DNA of 64,000 nucleotides, taken from NCBI GenBank assembly GCA_029856145.1, contig JAHQWK010000012.1, positions 64,001-128,000 on the forward strand. The letters run 5' to 3'. A program made the translations under genes and the position numbers. The stretch comes from Promethearchaeia archaeon (GTDB lineage Archaea; Asgardarchaeota; Lokiarchaeia; Sigyniarchaeales; SOKP01). Positions 53,348-62,756 of this stretch are shown in pieces. How positions within the stretch are numbered: position 1 is the first letter of the stretch; each line of letters starts with the position of its first letter. The notes below the pieces were generated by a model. It was not told the DNA's origin. It saw nothing but the letters and a program-made list of their open reading frames with translations, and did no database searches.

Positions 53348-53590
53348 TTAAATTACATCCGTTAAATTCAAATCCTGATCTTCAGCAAGTTCTCTCCATT
53401 GTTCGATAGATTCTTTAGCTTCTTCTTCATTCATCATTTCAATTGCATATCCTGCATGAACGATAACATACTTTCCAATTTCAGGTTTTTGAATTAACGC
53501 AATAATTACATTTTGTTTAATTCCATCAAAATCTACTAATGCAGAATTCTCATCAATTTCTAAGATTTTTCCTGGTATTGCTAAGCACAT
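53348..53590 (-). CDS. hypC: Hydrogenase maturation chaperone HypC
   Basis: MCLAIPG, YVIVHAGYAI. Confidence 0.95.
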   Translation of the reverse strand: MCLAIPGKILEIDENSALVDFDGIKQNVIIALIQKPEIGKYVIVHAGYAIEMMNEEEAKESIEQWRELAEDQDLNLTDVI

Positions 53591-54682: not shown

Positions 54683-54973
54683 TTAAGTTTTAAAATCTAA
54701 AATTCTAGAACCATGAAATAATCTAACTATTTGAACCTTATCTCCAAAAATTCTATAAATAAGACGATAATTTCTTAAAATTAATTCTCGAATATTTGGA
54801 TCGTCGAGCTCTGGTACTTTTCTTCCCAATTTCGGAAATTGAGTTAAACTTTCAACTTTTTCACGAACCAGTTCATAAAAGGAAAGAGCATATTCAAGCG
54901 AGTCTTGAGCAATATAATCAATAATCTCATTCAAATCATTTTCTGCTGTTGGAGACCATTCTATTTCAACCAT
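54683..54973 (-). CDS. RelE/ParE family toxin
   Basis: WSPTAENDLNEIIDYIAQDS, FPKLGRKVPE, YRLIY, HGSR. Confidence 0.9.
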   Translation of the reverse strand: MVEIEWSPTAENDLNEIIDYIAQDSLEYALSFYELVREKVESLTQFPKLGRKVPELDDPNIRELILRNYRLIYRIFGDKVQIVRLFHGSRILDFKT

Positions 54974-55161
54974 TTTTCCAATCTCTTTTTAGCATTTTCC
55001 ATGACTTGTTCATGAGGAATTACTTTTCCTAGCTTAACTTCTTCAATACCCGTTAATATCTTCTTTTTAACATATAGATGATACATGATATCATCAATTG
55101 TAGCATCTTCTGGTAATTTTCTTATAAGGGCTATTATTTCTTCCTTAAGATTAGTAGTCAT
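54961..55161 (-). CDS. Antitoxin of the RelE/ParE pair
   Basis: LPEDATIDDIMYHLYV..I..G..G..HE; overlaps the toxin start. Confidence 0.85.
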   Translation of the reverse strand: MTTNLKEEIIALIRKLPEDATIDDIMYHLYVKKKILTGIEEVKLGKVIPHEQVMENAKKRLEKWLK

Positions 55162-55527: not shown

Positions 55528-56406
55528 CTATATACCAAGCTTTTCTAATACTCCAGATAATCTTGTACGATGAAATTTTAATCCTAATTCATCCGGACTA
55601 AATCCCATTGCTAAAGCATATAATTCTGTTAGATACAAAACAGGGATTCCATATTCGGTTTCGAACATCTTGCCGAGATCTCTTTGTCTAGTATCAAATT
55701 GCTGGAAACATGATGGACAGTTCACAACAATGACGTCCGCACCAGTCTTTTTAATACTATCCATTTTTTTCTTTAGATTTGCCATGCCATGTTCCTCATA
55801 TGCATTTGTTACTGCTGAACCGCAACAAAGTGCAATTTCTTCATAGTCTACTACTGTAGCCCCAGAAAGAGCTGCTAACTCTTTTAAATTAGTCGGTCGC
55901 ATTGGATCGTCGGATTCCATCCATTCAGCGGGTCTCATATAATGACACCCTGGATGGCAAGCTACTTTCAAACCACCTAATTGTTTAGTTATAGCTCCTC
56001 TAATCTTATCCAATCCCACTTCATCTTTCAATACATCAACAAAATGCTTTATATCTATAGACCCTTTAAATTCCTTCCCGATTTTTGCCAGCTCCGAATT
56101 GACCTTTTCCTTCTTCAAGCTATCATGCTCTAATTGATGCTTTACACCTCTTAAAGTATTAGCACAACCATTACATAATGATACAATGTCCTTACCCTCT
56201 GTTTCTGCTAAACATAGATTTCGAGCACCGATTGTTAACCACGCATCATTATCAAAACATTTTACTCCAGTAGGATCTGGACAACATGAGAATGGTGCCT
56301 GAGAGGTTTCAATACCTAGCTTATCAAAAACTTTTCTTGAAGCAGCTTCAATAAAAGGAATTCTATTACCAATAACACATCCCTCAAACATTTTATATTC
56401 TGTCAT
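55528..56406 (-). CDS. hdrB: Heterodisulfide reductase subunit B
   Basis: Two CCG domains: GC..CCP..CNGC and GCH..CCG..CPSC. Confidence 0.9.
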   Translation of the reverse strand: MTEYKMFEGCVIGNRIPFIEAASRKVFDKLGIETSQAPFSCCPDPTGVKCFDNDAWLTIGARNLCLAETEGKDIVSLCNGCANTLRGVKHQLEHDSLKKEKVNSELAKIGKEFKGSIDIKHFVDVLKDEVGLDKIRGAITKQLGGLKVACHPGCHYMRPAEWMESDDPMRPTNLKELAALSGATVVDYEEIALCCGSAVTNAYEEHGMANLKKKMDSIKKTGADVIVVNCPSCFQQFDTRQRDLGKMFETEYGIPVLYLTELYALAMGFSPDELGLKFHRTRLSGVLEKLGI

Positions 56407-56422: not shown

Positions 56423-56932
56423 TTATTTTAGTTTTTTATCTGTTCCAATATTTTTTAGTAATGTTTGTACTTCATTCACATCTGGTACTACTACCGCTGG
56501 TAAACCTAATTGTTCTCTTCGTCTCTCAATTGCAGGTTGTGAAGGAATTGCTTTGGCATTTTCGAAAACTGTTTTTGCCTGTGAATAGATAAATTCTGGA
56601 CCTTTCCCTAGAGCAATACTCTGGTTTTTTAGAAATGTAAAGATTTCTGTAAGCTCAATATTTTGGGGACATACCTCATCACATGTATCACAAACAGTAC
56701 AACCCCAAATAGTTAACTCATCTCCTCCAAGGAGTAAACCTTTATATCCTAAAAGAGCAAATAAGATATTTTTTCTAGGATTATAACCCTTAGCCGGGTC
56801 ATAAAAATCCGCGGTAACATCAGTTACAGGACAATTATCAGCACATCTACTACATTGATAACAGTATTTAATCACATCAGGCCCAATATGGTAATCTAAA
56901 ATCTGTTTTCTCCATTCAAAGTTTACTTCCAT
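56423..56932 (-). CDS. hdrC: Heterodisulfide reductase subunit C
   Basis: CYQCSRCADNCP and CTVCDTCDEVCP. Confidence 0.9.
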   Translation of the reverse strand: MEVNFEWRKQILDYHIGPDVIKYCYQCSRCADNCPVTDVTADFYDPAKGYNPRKNILFALLGYKGLLLGGDELTIWGCTVCDTCDEVCPQNIELTEIFTFLKNQSIALGKGPEFIYSQAKTVFENAKAIPSQPAIERRREQLGLPAVVVPDVNEVQTLLKNIGTDKKLK

Positions 56933-56977
56933 TTTTTTTCACTTTTTTTCTTATTTTTTGAATGATTTTTTTTATTT

Positions 56978-57055
56978 GTAGGCTTTAACCCCACGCAAGG
57001 GGCAGTTATATCCAATTTCTATTATTTTTATTGGACATTCATCCTATAAGCCTAC
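56978..57055 (-). promoter_or_regulatory. Candidate SECIS element 3' of vhuU
   Basis: AUGA followed by stem AUGUCCAAU/AUUGGAUAU with an AAAAA-starting loop, plus outer helix GUAGGCUU/AAGCCUAC. Confidence 0.6.
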
Positions 57056-57190
57056 GTTCAAATTTCGAGAGTAAATCTCAGTGCCCTCTTCATTAACTAC
57101 AGTAATGTGAGCAGCACACGATAGTCAACAGTCAAAACAGCGAACTATCATTTCCAAGAGATTTACTACACCTTCTGGTATATCACTCAT
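57044..57190 (-). CDS. vhuU: Selenocysteine-containing hydrogenase subunit VhuU (UGA = Sec22)
   Basis: MSDIPEGVVNLLEMIVRCFDC-U-LSCAAHITVVNEEGTEIYSRNLNVGL; TGA at 57125-57127; supplies the L2 motif absent from vhuA. Confidence 0.92.
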
Positions 57191-57233: not shown

Positions 57234-58538
57234 TTATTTAATCCATGGGTCTGGTAATTTTAATCCATCTAGTGCCTTGTCTTCGAAAACCTGTTTAGCT
57301 ACATGCATTAATGTCTTTTCAATTCCCGCAATATTATGGTTAGTTGCTACTAAGAGATTTGCTTTTTTACAAATTCCTTCAGCATCTGACCAAATATGAT
57401 ACAAAAGTAATCCTCGTGGAGCTTCAGTGACGCCAACACCATCTCCTTCTCGTGGTTGGACATCCAAAGTTTTACAATCTGGATTTACCACATCATCATC
57501 TTGAAGGAGTGTTGCTACAACTTCAATTGACTCAACTAATTCAATTAATCGAGCCCAATGATATGCGAATGTATGATGAGGTATGTTTCCAACTTTTGCT
57601 CTCATTGCTTGCAATGCTTCATCAGCTAAGGGAGTTGCCATTTTATCTGCACAGTTAATCATTGCTAATGTATTCGCTCGATAAATACCTTCAGGGTATC
57701 CAGCAGGTTTATAATACATGTGAGTTGCATAAGAATGTTCTGGAATGTGTTCACCTAAAGCGTCTAAATATTTCTGAGGTGGATAATCGAATTTCTCTCC
57801 ATCAGGAGAAACAATACGAATATCACCATCATAAATATCATGAACACCATTTTTAGTCATACCTAAGTAATAAGTTGGAACAACACCAACATTAGCAACA
57901 ACATCCCAATAATCTTCGACAACTTTTAAACCAATATCCACAGTCTTTTTTGTCCATTCAACTTGATCCTCAATTTGTTTTAAAAACAAATCTCGAACAT
58001 CTTCATCTAAAGGCTTTTTCATTCCACCAACTATAGCAGAAATTGGATGTACAGATTTACCACCTACTGCAGCGCATAATTTCTGTCCAAAATCCATCAT
58101 TTTTAATGCCATTGTACCGACTTCTGGCATTTTATTGATGACATGAACAACATTCCTTAGCGCAGGATCAGCGAAAGGTCCTAATAAGAAATCAGGAGCT
58201 GCAAGTGCATAGAAATGAAGTGCATGTGATGAATATTGCTTTGCATTCTGTAACAATTGACGTAATTTATATGCTGCAGGAGGAATTTGAACGCCCCAAG
58301 CGTCTTCTACTGCTTTGGTAGGTGTTAGATGATGAGGTATCGGACATATACCACAAATTCTTGGAGTAATTCTAGGGATATTTTCGCAATATCTTCCTTC
58401 AAGAAATTTCTCAAAAAATCTTGTCGAAGTGATATTGAATTGAACATCTTGTACCTTTCCATCATCACCTAAGACTAATCTTAAGCCTCCATGTCCCTCT
58501 AATCGAGTCACGGGGTCTACTACTATTTCTTTTACCAT
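57234..58538 (-). CDS. vhuA: F420-non-reducing (group 3c) hydrogenase large subunit, split type
   Basis: TRLEGHG, RFFEKFL.GR, RICGICP, EAPRG.L.H; ends without DPCxxC. Confidence 0.92.
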   Translation of the reverse strand: MVKEIVVDPVTRLEGHGGLRLVLGDDGKVQDVQFNITSTRFFEKFLEGRYCENIPRITPRICGICPIPHHLTPTKAVEDAWGVQIPPAAYKLRQLLQNAKQYSSHALHFYALAAPDFLLGPFADPALRNVVHVINKMPEVGTMALKMMDFGQKLCAAVGGKSVHPISAIVGGMKKPLDEDVRDLFLKQIEDQVEWTKKTVDIGLKVVEDYWDVVANVGVVPTYYLGMTKNGVHDIYDGDIRIVSPDGEKFDYPPQKYLDALGEHIPEHSYATHMYYKPAGYPEGIYRANTLAMINCADKMATPLADEALQAMRAKVGNIPHHTFAYHWARLIELVESIEVVATLLQDDDVVNPDCKTLDVQPREGDGVGVTEAPRGLLLYHIWSDAEGICKKANLLVATNHNIAGIEKTLMHVAKQVFEDKALDGLKLPDPWIK

Positions 58539-58542
58539 TTTT

Positions 58543-59856
58543 TTATACGCCTCCTTTTCTTGATGCTAATGTAAATTTTTCAAAAGTGCCAATAGGATCT
58601 TTTACTTGAGCAAGTAGTTCATCTTTGGATAAACTCACATTGAATCCCTTAAGTATAGTATCTGCAAATCTCTCTGCTTGATCAACACCCCATTCTGTCT
58701 GACCATAACAGCCAGAACATGGAGCGTTAACCTTGATACATAGACCGCCACAGCCAGCACGAGTAACAGGACCCATACAGATATATCCTTGTTCAATAAG
58801 ACAATCATCCATATTAGGAAGCCCTTCATAGTCTCTTTTAACTTTTGTCATTGTAGATTTGCTTCCAATAATCCGAGGACATGTGTCACAGACGTTTGAG
58901 ATTTCAGTGAAATCTGAATTATCTCTCAAGAAAGCCATTAAACTTCCCGCAATTTCCTCTGTTGTTGGAGGTAAATTTGCTATGGGTGTGTCAGGAGTTC
59001 CATGTTTCTTTACTTGTTTTAGGATATCTCCAGCTAAATCAAAACCTGCCATTAATGGGACATTCAAGAATAATGTTAGAAATTCATACAAATTCTTTTT
59101 ATCTCCTGAACTAATAGCACCAAGACTCTTCGTCATACTGCCTAATTTTTCTGCTCTAGAATCAACTGTCTTTGCAGGCCCAAAGCAACCAACACAGGGT
59201 TTTCCTTTACTGGTACATTTTAAGCTGCAACCAATACTAGTTATGGGACCGAAGCATAATTTTCCTGCGTCTAATAAACAGTTATCTTTAATAGCACAAT
59301 CATTACAATATGCAAGATCATTCATAGGAAATGGCTTTTGTCCTAATAAGAATATCACAGCACTGACAATCTGTTCTGGTCTAGGCGGACACCCTGCCAT
59401 ATAAACATCTACATTAATAATATCATCAACAGGAACGATTTTATCTCTAAAACCGGGAGTATGTTGTGTTGGTTCACCACCACTTCCATCAGCTATACTT
59501 TCTACTTCAGAGAATTTTCTTCTTACTAAGTCATCTTTATTCCACTGGTTAGCTAATCCATGTACATTTCCATAGCAGGAACAACTTCCAAAATTAATGA
59601 TTAGAGCGCATTTTTCTCTCATTAGTTTGACGTTTTCATAATCTTCATTAGTTCTAACAGAACCTTCAATGAATCCGACTAATATTGAACCGTTTTCTCT
59701 CGCTTTCAATGAATCATGTTTAAAGTCTACTACTGCTGGCCAGTAAACTATTTCGAGTGCTGGAAGAACTGGCAATAATCCTAAATGAGCATTCAATAAG
59801 GATTGATGACAACCCCAACAATCGGAAAGTTGCATAAAAGCTACTTTTACTGCCAT
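58543..59856 (-). CDS. vhuG: F420-non-reducing hydrogenase small subunit with duplicated distal Fe-S module
   Basis: DCWGC, GSCSCYG, GCPP, two C..C/CL..G..C.GP.T..GC..C..PC.GC.G blocks. Confidence 0.88.
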   Translation of the reverse strand: MAVKVAFMQLSDCWGCHQSLLNAHLGLLPVLPALEIVYWPAVVDFKHDSLKARENGSILVGFIEGSVRTNEDYENVKLMREKCALIINFGSCSCYGNVHGLANQWNKDDLVRRKFSEVESIADGSGGEPTQHTPGFRDKIVPVDDIINVDVYMAGCPPRPEQIVSAVIFLLGQKPFPMNDLAYCNDCAIKDNCLLDAGKLCFGPITSIGCSLKCTSKGKPCVGCFGPAKTVDSRAEKLGSMTKSLGAISSGDKKNLYEFLTLFLNVPLMAGFDLAGDILKQVKKHGTPDTPIANLPPTTEEIAGSLMAFLRDNSDFTEISNVCDTCPRIIGSKSTMTKVKRDYEGLPNMDDCLIEQGYICMGPVTRAGCGGLCIKVNAPCSGCYGQTEWGVDQAERFADTILKGFNVSLSKDELLAQVKDPIGTFEKFTLASRKGGV

Positions 59857-60407: not shown

Positions 60408-60641
60408 ATGGTAGATATTACAGATACACTGGATTGCACGGGCGATGTTTGTCCTTATCCAGATGTAAAAAGCAAAAGAAGAGTTAAAAAGATGAATTCA
60501 GGAGAAGTACTTGAAATTCTCCTTGATTATCCTCTTTCAGCTGAGAGAATTCCCGAAACTATGAAATCTCTAGGGCATGAAGTGCTATCTGTAGATAAGA
60601 CCGGAGATTCTTCTTGGAAGATTCTCATCCAAATAAAATAA
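60408..60641 (+). CDS. TusA/SirA/YedF sulfur carrier
   Basis: LDCTGDVCPYP, GEVLEILLD. Confidence 0.9.
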   Translation: MVDITDTLDCTGDVCPYPDVKSKRRVKKMNSGEVLEILLDYPLSAERIPETMKSLGHEVLSVDKTGDSSWKILIQIK

Positions 60642-60642
60642 G

Positions 60643-61701
60643 GTGAAAAAAAAAATGGAATTTTGGTATGCATTAATAGTAGGACTTATTATTGGAGGTA
60701 TTTTTGGTTTTATATTACAGCGCGGAAGATTCTGTATGAATTCAGCCTTCAGAGATATCATTTTAATGAAAGAATTTAAGCTCGCAAAAGCAGTCGTGGT
60801 CTCATTGGCCGTCTTAATGATTGGTTTCGCGATATTTGCATTTGGCGGAGTAATTAATTTAGCTCCAAAACCATTTAAACCATGGGCAGCAATAGTTGGT
60901 GGTTTAATATTTGGAGGTGGAATGGTTCTTGCAGCTGGGTGTGCAAGTGGAACTACATATCGAGTCGGAGAAGGAATGATGGGATCTTTTGTCGCTGCTG
61001 TTGGGTTAACAACCGGTGCAATAATGACAAAGTTTGGGCCTCTAAATCCATCAATGCTATTCTTACAAGATGTTGTAGTTGGAGGAAACCTTACAATTTT
61101 TGGAGAATTCGCAGACTTAGGAACAATATTACCGACTTTGATGATTATTATTGGTATAGTAGGGATTGCCCTTATGCTTTTTTTCTGGGGATGGCCAGCT
61201 ATAAAGAAAAAAAGAGAAGCAAAGGAACCTTTAATAAAAACTGAAAATTTTGTAGAATCAACCTTTAAAAAAGGATGGCCTTGGTGGGTTACTGGTATTG
61301 GTGTTGGTATAATATTAATAGCTGGTTACGTTGCTAGTAATGGTGTAGTAGGTATTACAGGTGGTTGGATTAATATCGATTTATGGCTCGTTTTTGGAGG
61401 GTTAAGTCCTATTGGATGGACTGGTGCTATAATTTTCGGTATTATCCTTGGATCATTCGTTAGTGCTATTATCGCTAAAGAGTTTAAGTTTAGGGTTCCG
61501 AAAGAAGGGTTCACATTGGTTAAGCAGTTTATAGGCGGAGGCTTAATGGGATTTGGTGCTGTAACAGCGATGGGATGTAATATAACAAACATATTAGGTG
61601 GAGTACCTCAGTTTTCATTACATAGTATTATAGCGGGCGCATGTATAATGTTTGGAGCTTGGATAGCAGCTTATCTTCTATTTATGTGGAGACAAGACTA
61701 A
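60643..61701 (+). CDS. YeeE/YedE (thiosulfate/sulfur compound) transporter
   Basis: LQRGRFCM, GMVLAAGCASG, MGFGA...GCNI. Confidence 0.9.
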   Translation: MKKKMEFWYALIVGLIIGGIFGFILQRGRFCMNSAFRDIILMKEFKLAKAVVVSLAVLMIGFAIFAFGGVINLAPKPFKPWAAIVGGLIFGGGMVLAAGCASGTTYRVGEGMMGSFVAAVGLTTGAIMTKFGPLNPSMLFLQDVVVGGNLTIFGEFADLGTILPTLMIIIGIVGIALMLFFWGWPAIKKKREAKEPLIKTENFVESTFKKGWPWWVTGIGVGIILIAGYVASNGVVGITGGWINIDLWLVFGGLSPIGWTGAIIFGIILGSFVSAIIAKEFKFRVPKEGFTLVKQFIGGGLMGFGAVTAMGCNITNILGGVPQFSLHSIIAGACIMFGAWIAAYLLFMWRQD

Positions 61702-61723
61702 CTTTTGGAGATGAGAGAGAAAT

Positions 61724-62086
61724 ATGGGACGACTTGGAATACTTTTTTTCAATGGACCATACCAAGCAGAGTCTGCTGAAACTGTTTGTAAATTAGCGAG
61801 CACAGCATTAGATAAAGGTCATGAAGTGCGAATTTTTTGCTATATGGATGCTGTCAATGCAGCTTTAGAAAATCAAAAAGATATTGAAGGAATATATAAC
61901 ATCGAAAAAGCGTTCAAAGAAATCCTTGAAAAAGGAGCAACTGTGAGATTATGTAACCTATGTCTTTTAGTGAGAGGTACCATGAAAAATTGTTTAAAGA
62001 GAGAATGCGGAGATGTTAAAAGAGCTGGGACACCAGATCTTGCTAAGATTATTGATGAAACTGATAAATTAATAGTAATATGTTAA
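61724..62086 (+). CDS. DsrE/TusD-like sulfur relay protein
   Basis: GPY, GHEV.IF.YMDAV, C..C...RG. Confidence 0.85.
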   Translation: MGRLGILFFNGPYQAESAETVCKLASTALDKGHEVRIFCYMDAVNAALENQKDIEGIYNIEKAFKEILEKGATVRLCNLCLLVRGTMKNCLKRECGDVKRAGTPDLAKIIDETDKLIVIC

Positions 62087-62097
62087 GGTGATAATAA

Positions 62098-62442
62098 ATG
62101 TCAGAAGAAAAAGAAGTAGTAATACTTTTACGGCAACCCCCTCATGGAACACTTTATCCCGTTGAGGGTCTAAGAATGTCGGTTGCTGTAAGTGCAGATT
62201 TTGATCCAATAACCATTGCTATTAATGATGGTGTCTATACCTTTCTTAAAGATGTAGATAAAACGATGTATTCAATGCACATAGATTTTCTTAAGAATAT
62301 TGACTTGGATATTTATGTAGATAAGAAATCACTTGATGAACGTGGTCTTACGAAAGATGATCTAATAGAACAAATTGAGATCAAAGAACATGGTGAAATT
62401 TTGAAAATGATTGAAAATTCAACCGTAACTATACCATTTTAG
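62098..62442 (+). CDS. DsrF/TusC-like protein
   Basis: PPHGT, EGLR, DGVY, SL.ERGL. Confidence 0.85.
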   Translation: MSEEKEVVILLRQPPHGTLYPVEGLRMSVAVSADFDPITIAINDGVYTFLKDVDKTMYSMHIDFLKNIDLDIYVDKKSLDERGLTKDDLIEQIEIKEHGEILKMIENSTVTIPF

Positions 62443-62447
62443 GAGGT

Positions 62448-62756
62448 TTGATGACAATGAGCAAAAAAGTCTTGTATTTTATCACAAGTGAAGATATCAC
62501 AGGAGTAGAACTTGCTATGGAACATACTGATGAAGATGATGTAACAATTCTCTTACTCCAAAATGCTGTATATTTCGCAAATAAAACCAATAAAACTGTT
62601 TCACAAGCACTCAATCAAAAGAAAACTGTAGCAGCCTGTAAAGAGCATATAGATTTACGAGGTTTAAACAATTTCGTCTCTGATAAAATTAAATTAGTTG
62701 CTTCCGAACAAGTTATCGACTTAATTTTCGAAAATGATACTATCATAAATATGTAA
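62448..62756 (+). CDS. DsrH/TusB-like protein
   Basis: ILLLQNAVY, EH..LRG, IDLI. Confidence 0.8.
   Translation: MMTMSKKVLYFITSEDITGVELAMEHTDEDDVTILLLQNAVYFANKTNKTVSQALNQKKTVAACKEHIDLRGLNNFVSDKIKLVASEQVIDLIFENDTIINM

Follow-up and report, generated by a model that had tools for sequence, protein, structure and literature searches.

A SECIS element placed 3' of a selenoprotein gene recruits EFSec with Sec-tRNA. The closest described relative of the element considered here is the lokiSECIS of VhuU (Mariotti et al. 2016, PMC4989117). This comprises AUGA, a 9-bp stem, an 11-nt loop opening with five A and ending in G, and AA after the stem; it overlaps the end of its gene, whose stop codon is supplied by the UGA within the core. 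The Asgard type I eSECIS-like model (Huang et al. 2024, PMC11227280) is wider; it consists of two stems and an internal loop, with GA before the stem and GA or AA after it, a stem of 7–15 bp, a loop of 8–20 nt and no conserved nucleotides around the core. AUGA_AA is reported there for many Lokiarchaeia frhA and vhuU genes, and the precedent of an A.A kink-turn is already cited. The available text of the 2016 paper contains no 3' hairpin or three-way junction, and that of the 2024 paper no mention of the side hairpin, with its GC loop, described below. Other relatives are the eukaryotic type I SECIS, with a tandem G.A/A.G core and SBP2 as partner, and the SBP2-independent methanogen SECIS (PMC11881835), with GAA opposite A between two stems and G-C clamps. 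A further comparison is offered by k-junctions (TPP riboswitch, DUF-3268; PMC10573300), where a kink-turn core adjoins a three-way junction.

The present element lies on the minus strand of the window, i.e., the whole 64,000-nucleotide stretch that was analysed, and follows vhuU (Table 1). This gene has a single in-frame UGA, at codon 22, which falls at the metal-ligand position of the hydrogenase (motif D-C-U-x-x-C-x-x-H) and was retained in nearly all close orthologs. The best family match of its product was VhuU (NF041786, E = 2.6e-13), though short of the curated cut-off, which is methanogen-trained. The gene order on the minus strand was vhuG, vhuA, vhuU, hdrC, hdrB, and the closest named relatives were mostly Promethearchaeota or Promethearchaeia; hdrC does follow vhuU, as stated in an earlier reading of the sequence alone (the sequence-only reading). 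Neither hdrA nor vhuD was found in or next to this vhuGAU-hdrCB operon.

Several other features of the locus were observed. At 437 aa the product of vhuG was long, and cluster stretches recurred in it. Cysteine preceded Sec (D-C-U, 57125–57133, minus strand) in nearly all Asgard VhuU orthologs seen, while two orthologs kept proline; the methanogen VhuU motif is D-P-U. One vhuU ortholog (L012:1603, in G011:C49) had an early UAA after residue 33 and an intact SECIS, reflecting either a sequencing error or truncation. Divergent from the operon were tusA, a YeeE-type sulfur-transport gene and three small genes resembling DsrE/F/H (60408–62756, plus strand). Downstream of hdrB were a pair resembling a RelE/ParE toxin-antitoxin system, judged by eye only (54683–55161, minus strand), and hypC, identified with Pfam (53348–53590, minus strand).

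Table 1. Position of the hydrogenase operon genes and of the parts of the predicted SECIS element (window coordinates).
Feature	Position	Strand	Remarks
vhuG	58543..59856	-	small hydrogenase subunit
vhuA	57234..58538	-	large hydrogenase subunit without its C-terminal metal ligands
vhuU	57044..57190	-	48-aa selenoprotein subunit of split [NiFeSe] hydrogenase; stop UAG
Sec UGA codon of vhuU	57125..57127	-	
P1 outer helix, 5' strand	57048..57055	-	within last vhuU codons; 8 bp with 56985-56978
2-nt insertion relative to most orthologs	57047..57048	-	from alignment
P2, kink-turn C-helix, 5' strand	57044..57046	-	also the UAG stop codon
Kink-turn bulge (G, A, U) and 5' GA of core	57039..57043	-	AUGA = 57042-57039
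P3 upper stem, 5' strand	57030..57038	-	9 bp; two-sided change in 8/9 pairs
Apical loop	57017..57029	-	13 nt, first five A
P3, 3' strand	57008..57016	-	
3' AA of core	57006..57007	-	G.A plus A.A, not tandem G.A
P2, 3' strand	57003..57005	-	
P4, 3' side hairpin	56989..57002	-	four C-G pairs; 6-nt loop with conserved GC dinucleotide
P1, 3' strand	56978..56985	-	compensates synonymous 5'-strand changes
hdrC	56423..56932	-	start 111 nt past vhuU stop
hdrB	55528..56406	-	

Every feature listed for 57055–56978 in the sequence-only reading was found in place. The Sec codon preceded AUGA by 83 nt when counted from its last base and by 85 nt from its first. The element folded into a three-way junction with a minimum free energy of -25.8 kcal/mol (z = -4.43), and none of 200 shuffled sequences was as stable; P2 was not predicted by RNAfold alone (-23.5 versus -25.8 kcal/mol). 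The base G57003 had an alternative partner in U56988, which would extend P4 so that the hairpin ran from 57003 to 56988. A search of the window with a structure model of the element returned the element itself as its sole match, and no other SECIS was found in the operon, so that this remains the only candidate there. Rfam gave no match at the element with E up to 10. Coverage of RNA run X19 did not reach the element and has no bearing on its expression.

The resemblance to the lokiSECIS was close. The gene whose 3' end the element overlaps encodes a selenoprotein and carries an in-frame UGA, and the genome is that of a Sec-using Asgard archaeon; AUGA stood before and AA after a 9-bp stem backed by covariation, and the loop again opened with five A. 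However, this loop was 13 nt long and ended in A, a form common to approximately 15 close relatives whose other features were unchanged; the strict 2016 consensus (11-nt loop, terminal G) therefore does not describe the element, while the wider 2024 model does. The stop codon also differed. In 87 of 92 family orthologs it was the UGA of the AUGA core, whereas here the 2-nt insertion, present in 4 of 92 family sequences, moved it to a UAG just 5' of the core. P1 or P2 is probably the counterpart of the family-specific lower-stem pairs listed by Huang et al. 2024 (PMC11227280).

Conservation of the fold, the lack of which had been named beforehand as a possible refutation, was evaluated in an alignment of 71 orthologs made from sequence only. 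This showed that 95% of cells were paired and that 10 pairs had changed on both sides, which none of 500 shuffles equalled; sliding the register lowered pairing to 28–44%. The two best covarying column pairs both belonged to P1, and their 5' partners were third codon positions. On a tree built from the upstream coding DNA, and thus independent of the element, compensatory changes fell on one and the same branch 4 and 6 times in the two variable P1 pairs, against no more than 3 times among 2781 other column pairs; on a shorter tree of all 94 sequences these values were 4 and 7, against 5 or fewer elsewhere. The support for P1 rests on this covariation, since the mere presence of a best duplex was uninformative, 36–84% of shuffles passing that test. 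The three-way junction put forward in the sequence-only reading was borne out in this respect.

Within the family, P2 and P4 were conserved without covariation, and their support came from comparison across genes and lineages, in which kinship was ignored. Pairs of the C-helix were read at fixed offsets, using only the core and upper stem as anchor. Of 171 elements, 168 and 141 formed the two pairs below the bulge, which were Watson-Crick in 167 and 134, where permutations reached at most 145 and 96; across genes these pairs switched among G-C, C-G, U-A and A-U. The third P2 pair was ambiguous, and weak outside the family (13/47). Sequence and covariation thus revealed a C-helix, a 3-nt bulge, G.A followed by A.A, and a second helix, and the comparison supports the interpretation of the core and its 2–3 bp C-helix as a standard kink-turn that opens into a predicted three-way junction. 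The short P2 helix, which makes the predicted core a regular kink-turn, was overlooked in the sequence-only reading. An A.A at the second core pair is also seen in Kt-23 of T. solenopsae; A.A at this position occurs naturally, and in a tested case it did not fold alone but could be rescued by tertiary context (PMC5061560).

The side hairpin was not confined to this gene. Eight SECIS elements were found in the genome, behind vhuU, four vhuD, two selD and one gene with two adjacent UGA codons; comparison with the vhuD and selD 3' regions had been suggested as a check, and P4 was indeed present behind all six of these. It was found in 8/8 elements overall, with GC in the loop of seven, and P1 was clear in seven. 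Among Asgard vhuU, vhuD and selD elements, P4 occurred in 169 of 171 and its GC loop in 164; by set, the frequencies were 92/92 for the family orthologs, 47/47, 12/13 and 18/19, while shuffled sequences produced 18–41%. The Cys copies of vhuD obtained in a Pfam FlpD search were negative controls; of these, 5/23 had P4 and none had the GC loop. The stem sequences of P4 varied between families, and swapping arms between families lowered pairing, to 0–50% for most combinations involving selD and the UGA-UGA family. Because P4 occurs in every SECIS found in this genome and in nearly all of the Asgard elements examined, and not in the Cys paralogs, the predicted junction with P4 is considered a general architecture of Asgard SECIS rather than a peculiarity of the vhuU locus. 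In the published text that was searched there is no description of a side hairpin, three-way junction or covariation in Asgard SECIS, although these could be drawn in figures or in the 2016 supplement; as described there the element is smaller, and the conserved side hairpin is a predicted addition. Pseudoknotting of the P4 GC with the apical loop or the 5' linker found no support, since GC occurred there in only 28/171 and 76/171 elements.

Apart from the vhuU element, the vhuU-trained model matched a single SECIS of this genome, and is therefore gene-specific. It also gave a weak match (E = 0.7) outside the window, at C13:157274-157344 on the minus strand, to a core-like hairpin without side arm; there was no obvious UGA-containing gene upstream. 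The two selD genes were tandem Sec-selD copies (L181, at C9:622616-626380), both of which had a separate type II SECIS plus side hairpin, and Sec-selD was also present in two copies in genomes G011 and G088. The four Sec-vhuD genes with SECIS were located at C2:22469, C2:105930, C25:80650 and C30:10659, at least two of them behind Sec-hdrA. The remaining gene, also outside the window, was a 158-codon ORF behind acr3 with two adjacent in-frame UGAs (L192:838-1314, plus strand, equivalent to C9:170437-170913), followed by a full SECIS with side hairpin. This ORF had no Pfam match; of 41 genomes in the order, 23 had homologs with two UGAs, and a SECIS lay 132–135 nt downstream in all eight that were examined. 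It represents a candidate tandem-selenocysteine family outside the seven Asgard families of Huang 2024.

Other interpretations of the element were considered. A chance fold or an assembly error in AT-rich DNA might be suspected given that 125 sites in the genome matched a loose core-and-stem pattern. However, a strict pattern scan of the genome (3.55 Mb) left six sites, four of them directly behind UGA-containing genes, and the z-score of -4.4 and the covariation tell against chance. Contigs of runs X2 and X4, from two studies, carried the letters of the element without a difference, as did X1 over 56844–57042, although one of these three runs may be the source of the window itself; the AA and the 2-nt insertion are accordingly not assembly slips, and this interpretation can be practically dismissed. 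It was also proposed that the non-canonical core marks a SECIS variant of its own, one that stands between the methanogen GAA/A and eukaryotic AUGA/GA types. The 3' side of the core is indeed AA, and AUGA with either GA or AA is found in methanogen vhuD SECIS too. The likeness to the eukaryotic type I element was real enough: both have an AUGA core as a kink-turn, unpaired A residues at the top of the stem and a 3' location, and the eukaryote-like character seen in the sequence-only reading (AUGA, 9-bp stem, loop opening with five A) was correct. Yet the present element has a shorter stem, allows A.A, forms a predicted three-way junction and has no SBP2 candidate in its genome, and its core is not tandem G.A/A.G. 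It resembles the methanogen SECIS (PMC11881835) in being archaeal, 3' of a vhuU-type gene and independent of SBP2, but the GAA/A bulge and G-C clamps were absent from it, and GAA/A was found at the core of only 3/91 family orthologs. Among 92 orthologs the 3' core was AA in 38 and GA in 54. Parsimony placed GA at the root of the family, with 5 to 13 switches between AA and GA in both directions; a Watson-Crick pair stood above the core in 27/38 AA elements versus 8/54 GA elements (counts that ignore kinship), and GA-type elements often carried one extra base at the base of the stem. Furthermore, AA after the stem in vhuU is already in print in both earlier studies (PMC4989117, PMC11227280). 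The AA core is therefore a published form and not a novelty, and an intermediate type is very improbable.

Two further interpretations concern the side arms. In a strict k-junction, P4 would be the T-helix following straight after the core and P1 the C-helix. In its favour, k-junctions likewise carry their extra helix on the non-bulged strand (PMC10573300), the first bases past the core can extend P4 too in some distant vhuU elements, and outside the family the third P2 pair is weak. However, the two bases after the core covaried with the bases 5' of the bulge, being G-C in vhuU and vhuD and C-G in selD and some vhuU; this is the register of a standard kink-turn, and P4 would consequently lie beyond the C-helix. 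A third helix between core and C-helix on the non-bulged strand was not found in the element, where the core is followed by the 2–3 bp C-helix and only then by the extra helix, and a strict k-junction is thus unlikely. L7Ae folds standard kink-turns but did not fold the k-junctions tested (PMC10573300). Alternatively, the core may be the SECIS while P1 and P4 form a separate element of mRNA stability, processing or termination, with no role in recoding. A U-tract stood just behind P1 in 17 family orthologs, and eukaryotic and methanogen SECIS are not known to have such a side arm. Against this, the spacing between core and P4 was short and constant in four unrelated gene families, and P4 was present both where hdrC followed without a U-tract (72 cases) and where a U-tract followed (17); it was at background level behind the Cys-vhuD paralogs, and no terminator pattern was found at this site. 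Such a division of roles is judged rather doubtful, while retaining more weight than the k-junction.

The element is best explained as the SECIS of vhuU, a lokiSECIS (Asgard type I eSECIS-like element) of the AUGA_AA form already in print, which would direct the UGA 85 nt upstream to be read as Sec; a probability of about 0.9 is given to this interpretation. The in-frame UGA at the metal-ligand position, its conservation in orthologs and the Sec machinery of the genome all agree with the earlier proposal of a SECIS for vhuU. Genes for tRNA-Sec, SepSecS and the two Sec-SelD proteins were above family cut-offs, while best-hit candidates for EFSec and PSTK were below curated cut-offs. There was no SBP2 candidate in the genome, where only two L7Ae-domain genes occurred; these sit among ribosomal protein and nusA genes and are placed like L7Ae and L30e. 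Sec at the UGA would give VhuU the selenium ligand of the NiFe centre. The comparison supports a kink-turn that joins the 9-bp stem and A-rich loop to the 2–3 bp helix, and then to the junction with the GC-loop hairpin and outer helix. In the proposed mechanism, the junction, which begins 72 nt downstream of the Sec codon, would be intact while that codon is decoded, and may stabilise the weak A.A kink-turn. EFSec with Sec-tRNA may then be brought in by the kink-turn together with the two loops, by way of L7Ae, L30e or an Asgard factor, such partners being suggested because, to our knowledge, no Asgard SBP2 is known. A ribosome finishing vhuU would melt the 5' strands of the element, which would therefore refold in each round.

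One reporter experiment tells against this interpretation: in M. maripaludis, a distant host, no activity was seen for a vhuU SECIS from Loki (Peiter et al. 2025, PMC11881835). The predicted energy of the construct was -6.9 kcal/mol. Core-only fragments ranged from -3.3 to -14.3 kcal/mol and full elements from -14.6 to -27.8 kcal/mol; the construct is within the former range and outside the latter, which suggests, on energy (the paper giving no construct sequence), that the side arms may have been omitted. Tentatively, and at somewhat less than even odds, we suggest that the whole 75–80 nt three-way junction is the functional Asgard SECIS, and that P4 is a required site, not described before, by which the RNA is recognised by EFSec or by an Asgard-specific equivalent of SBP2, lost towards eukaryotes. 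If P4 were required, the published models and the sole reporter test would have used an incomplete element. Of the 125 loose core matches in the genome, 10 had P4 and 6 of these were behind UGA-containing genes, so that its inclusion would sharpen searches. P4 offers a concrete site for mutation, since both its place and its loop sequence are kept in vhuU, vhuD, selD and one more candidate family, and the full element with P4 may be a better bait for the partner protein in Asgard UGA recoding, a process for which no SBP2 is known.
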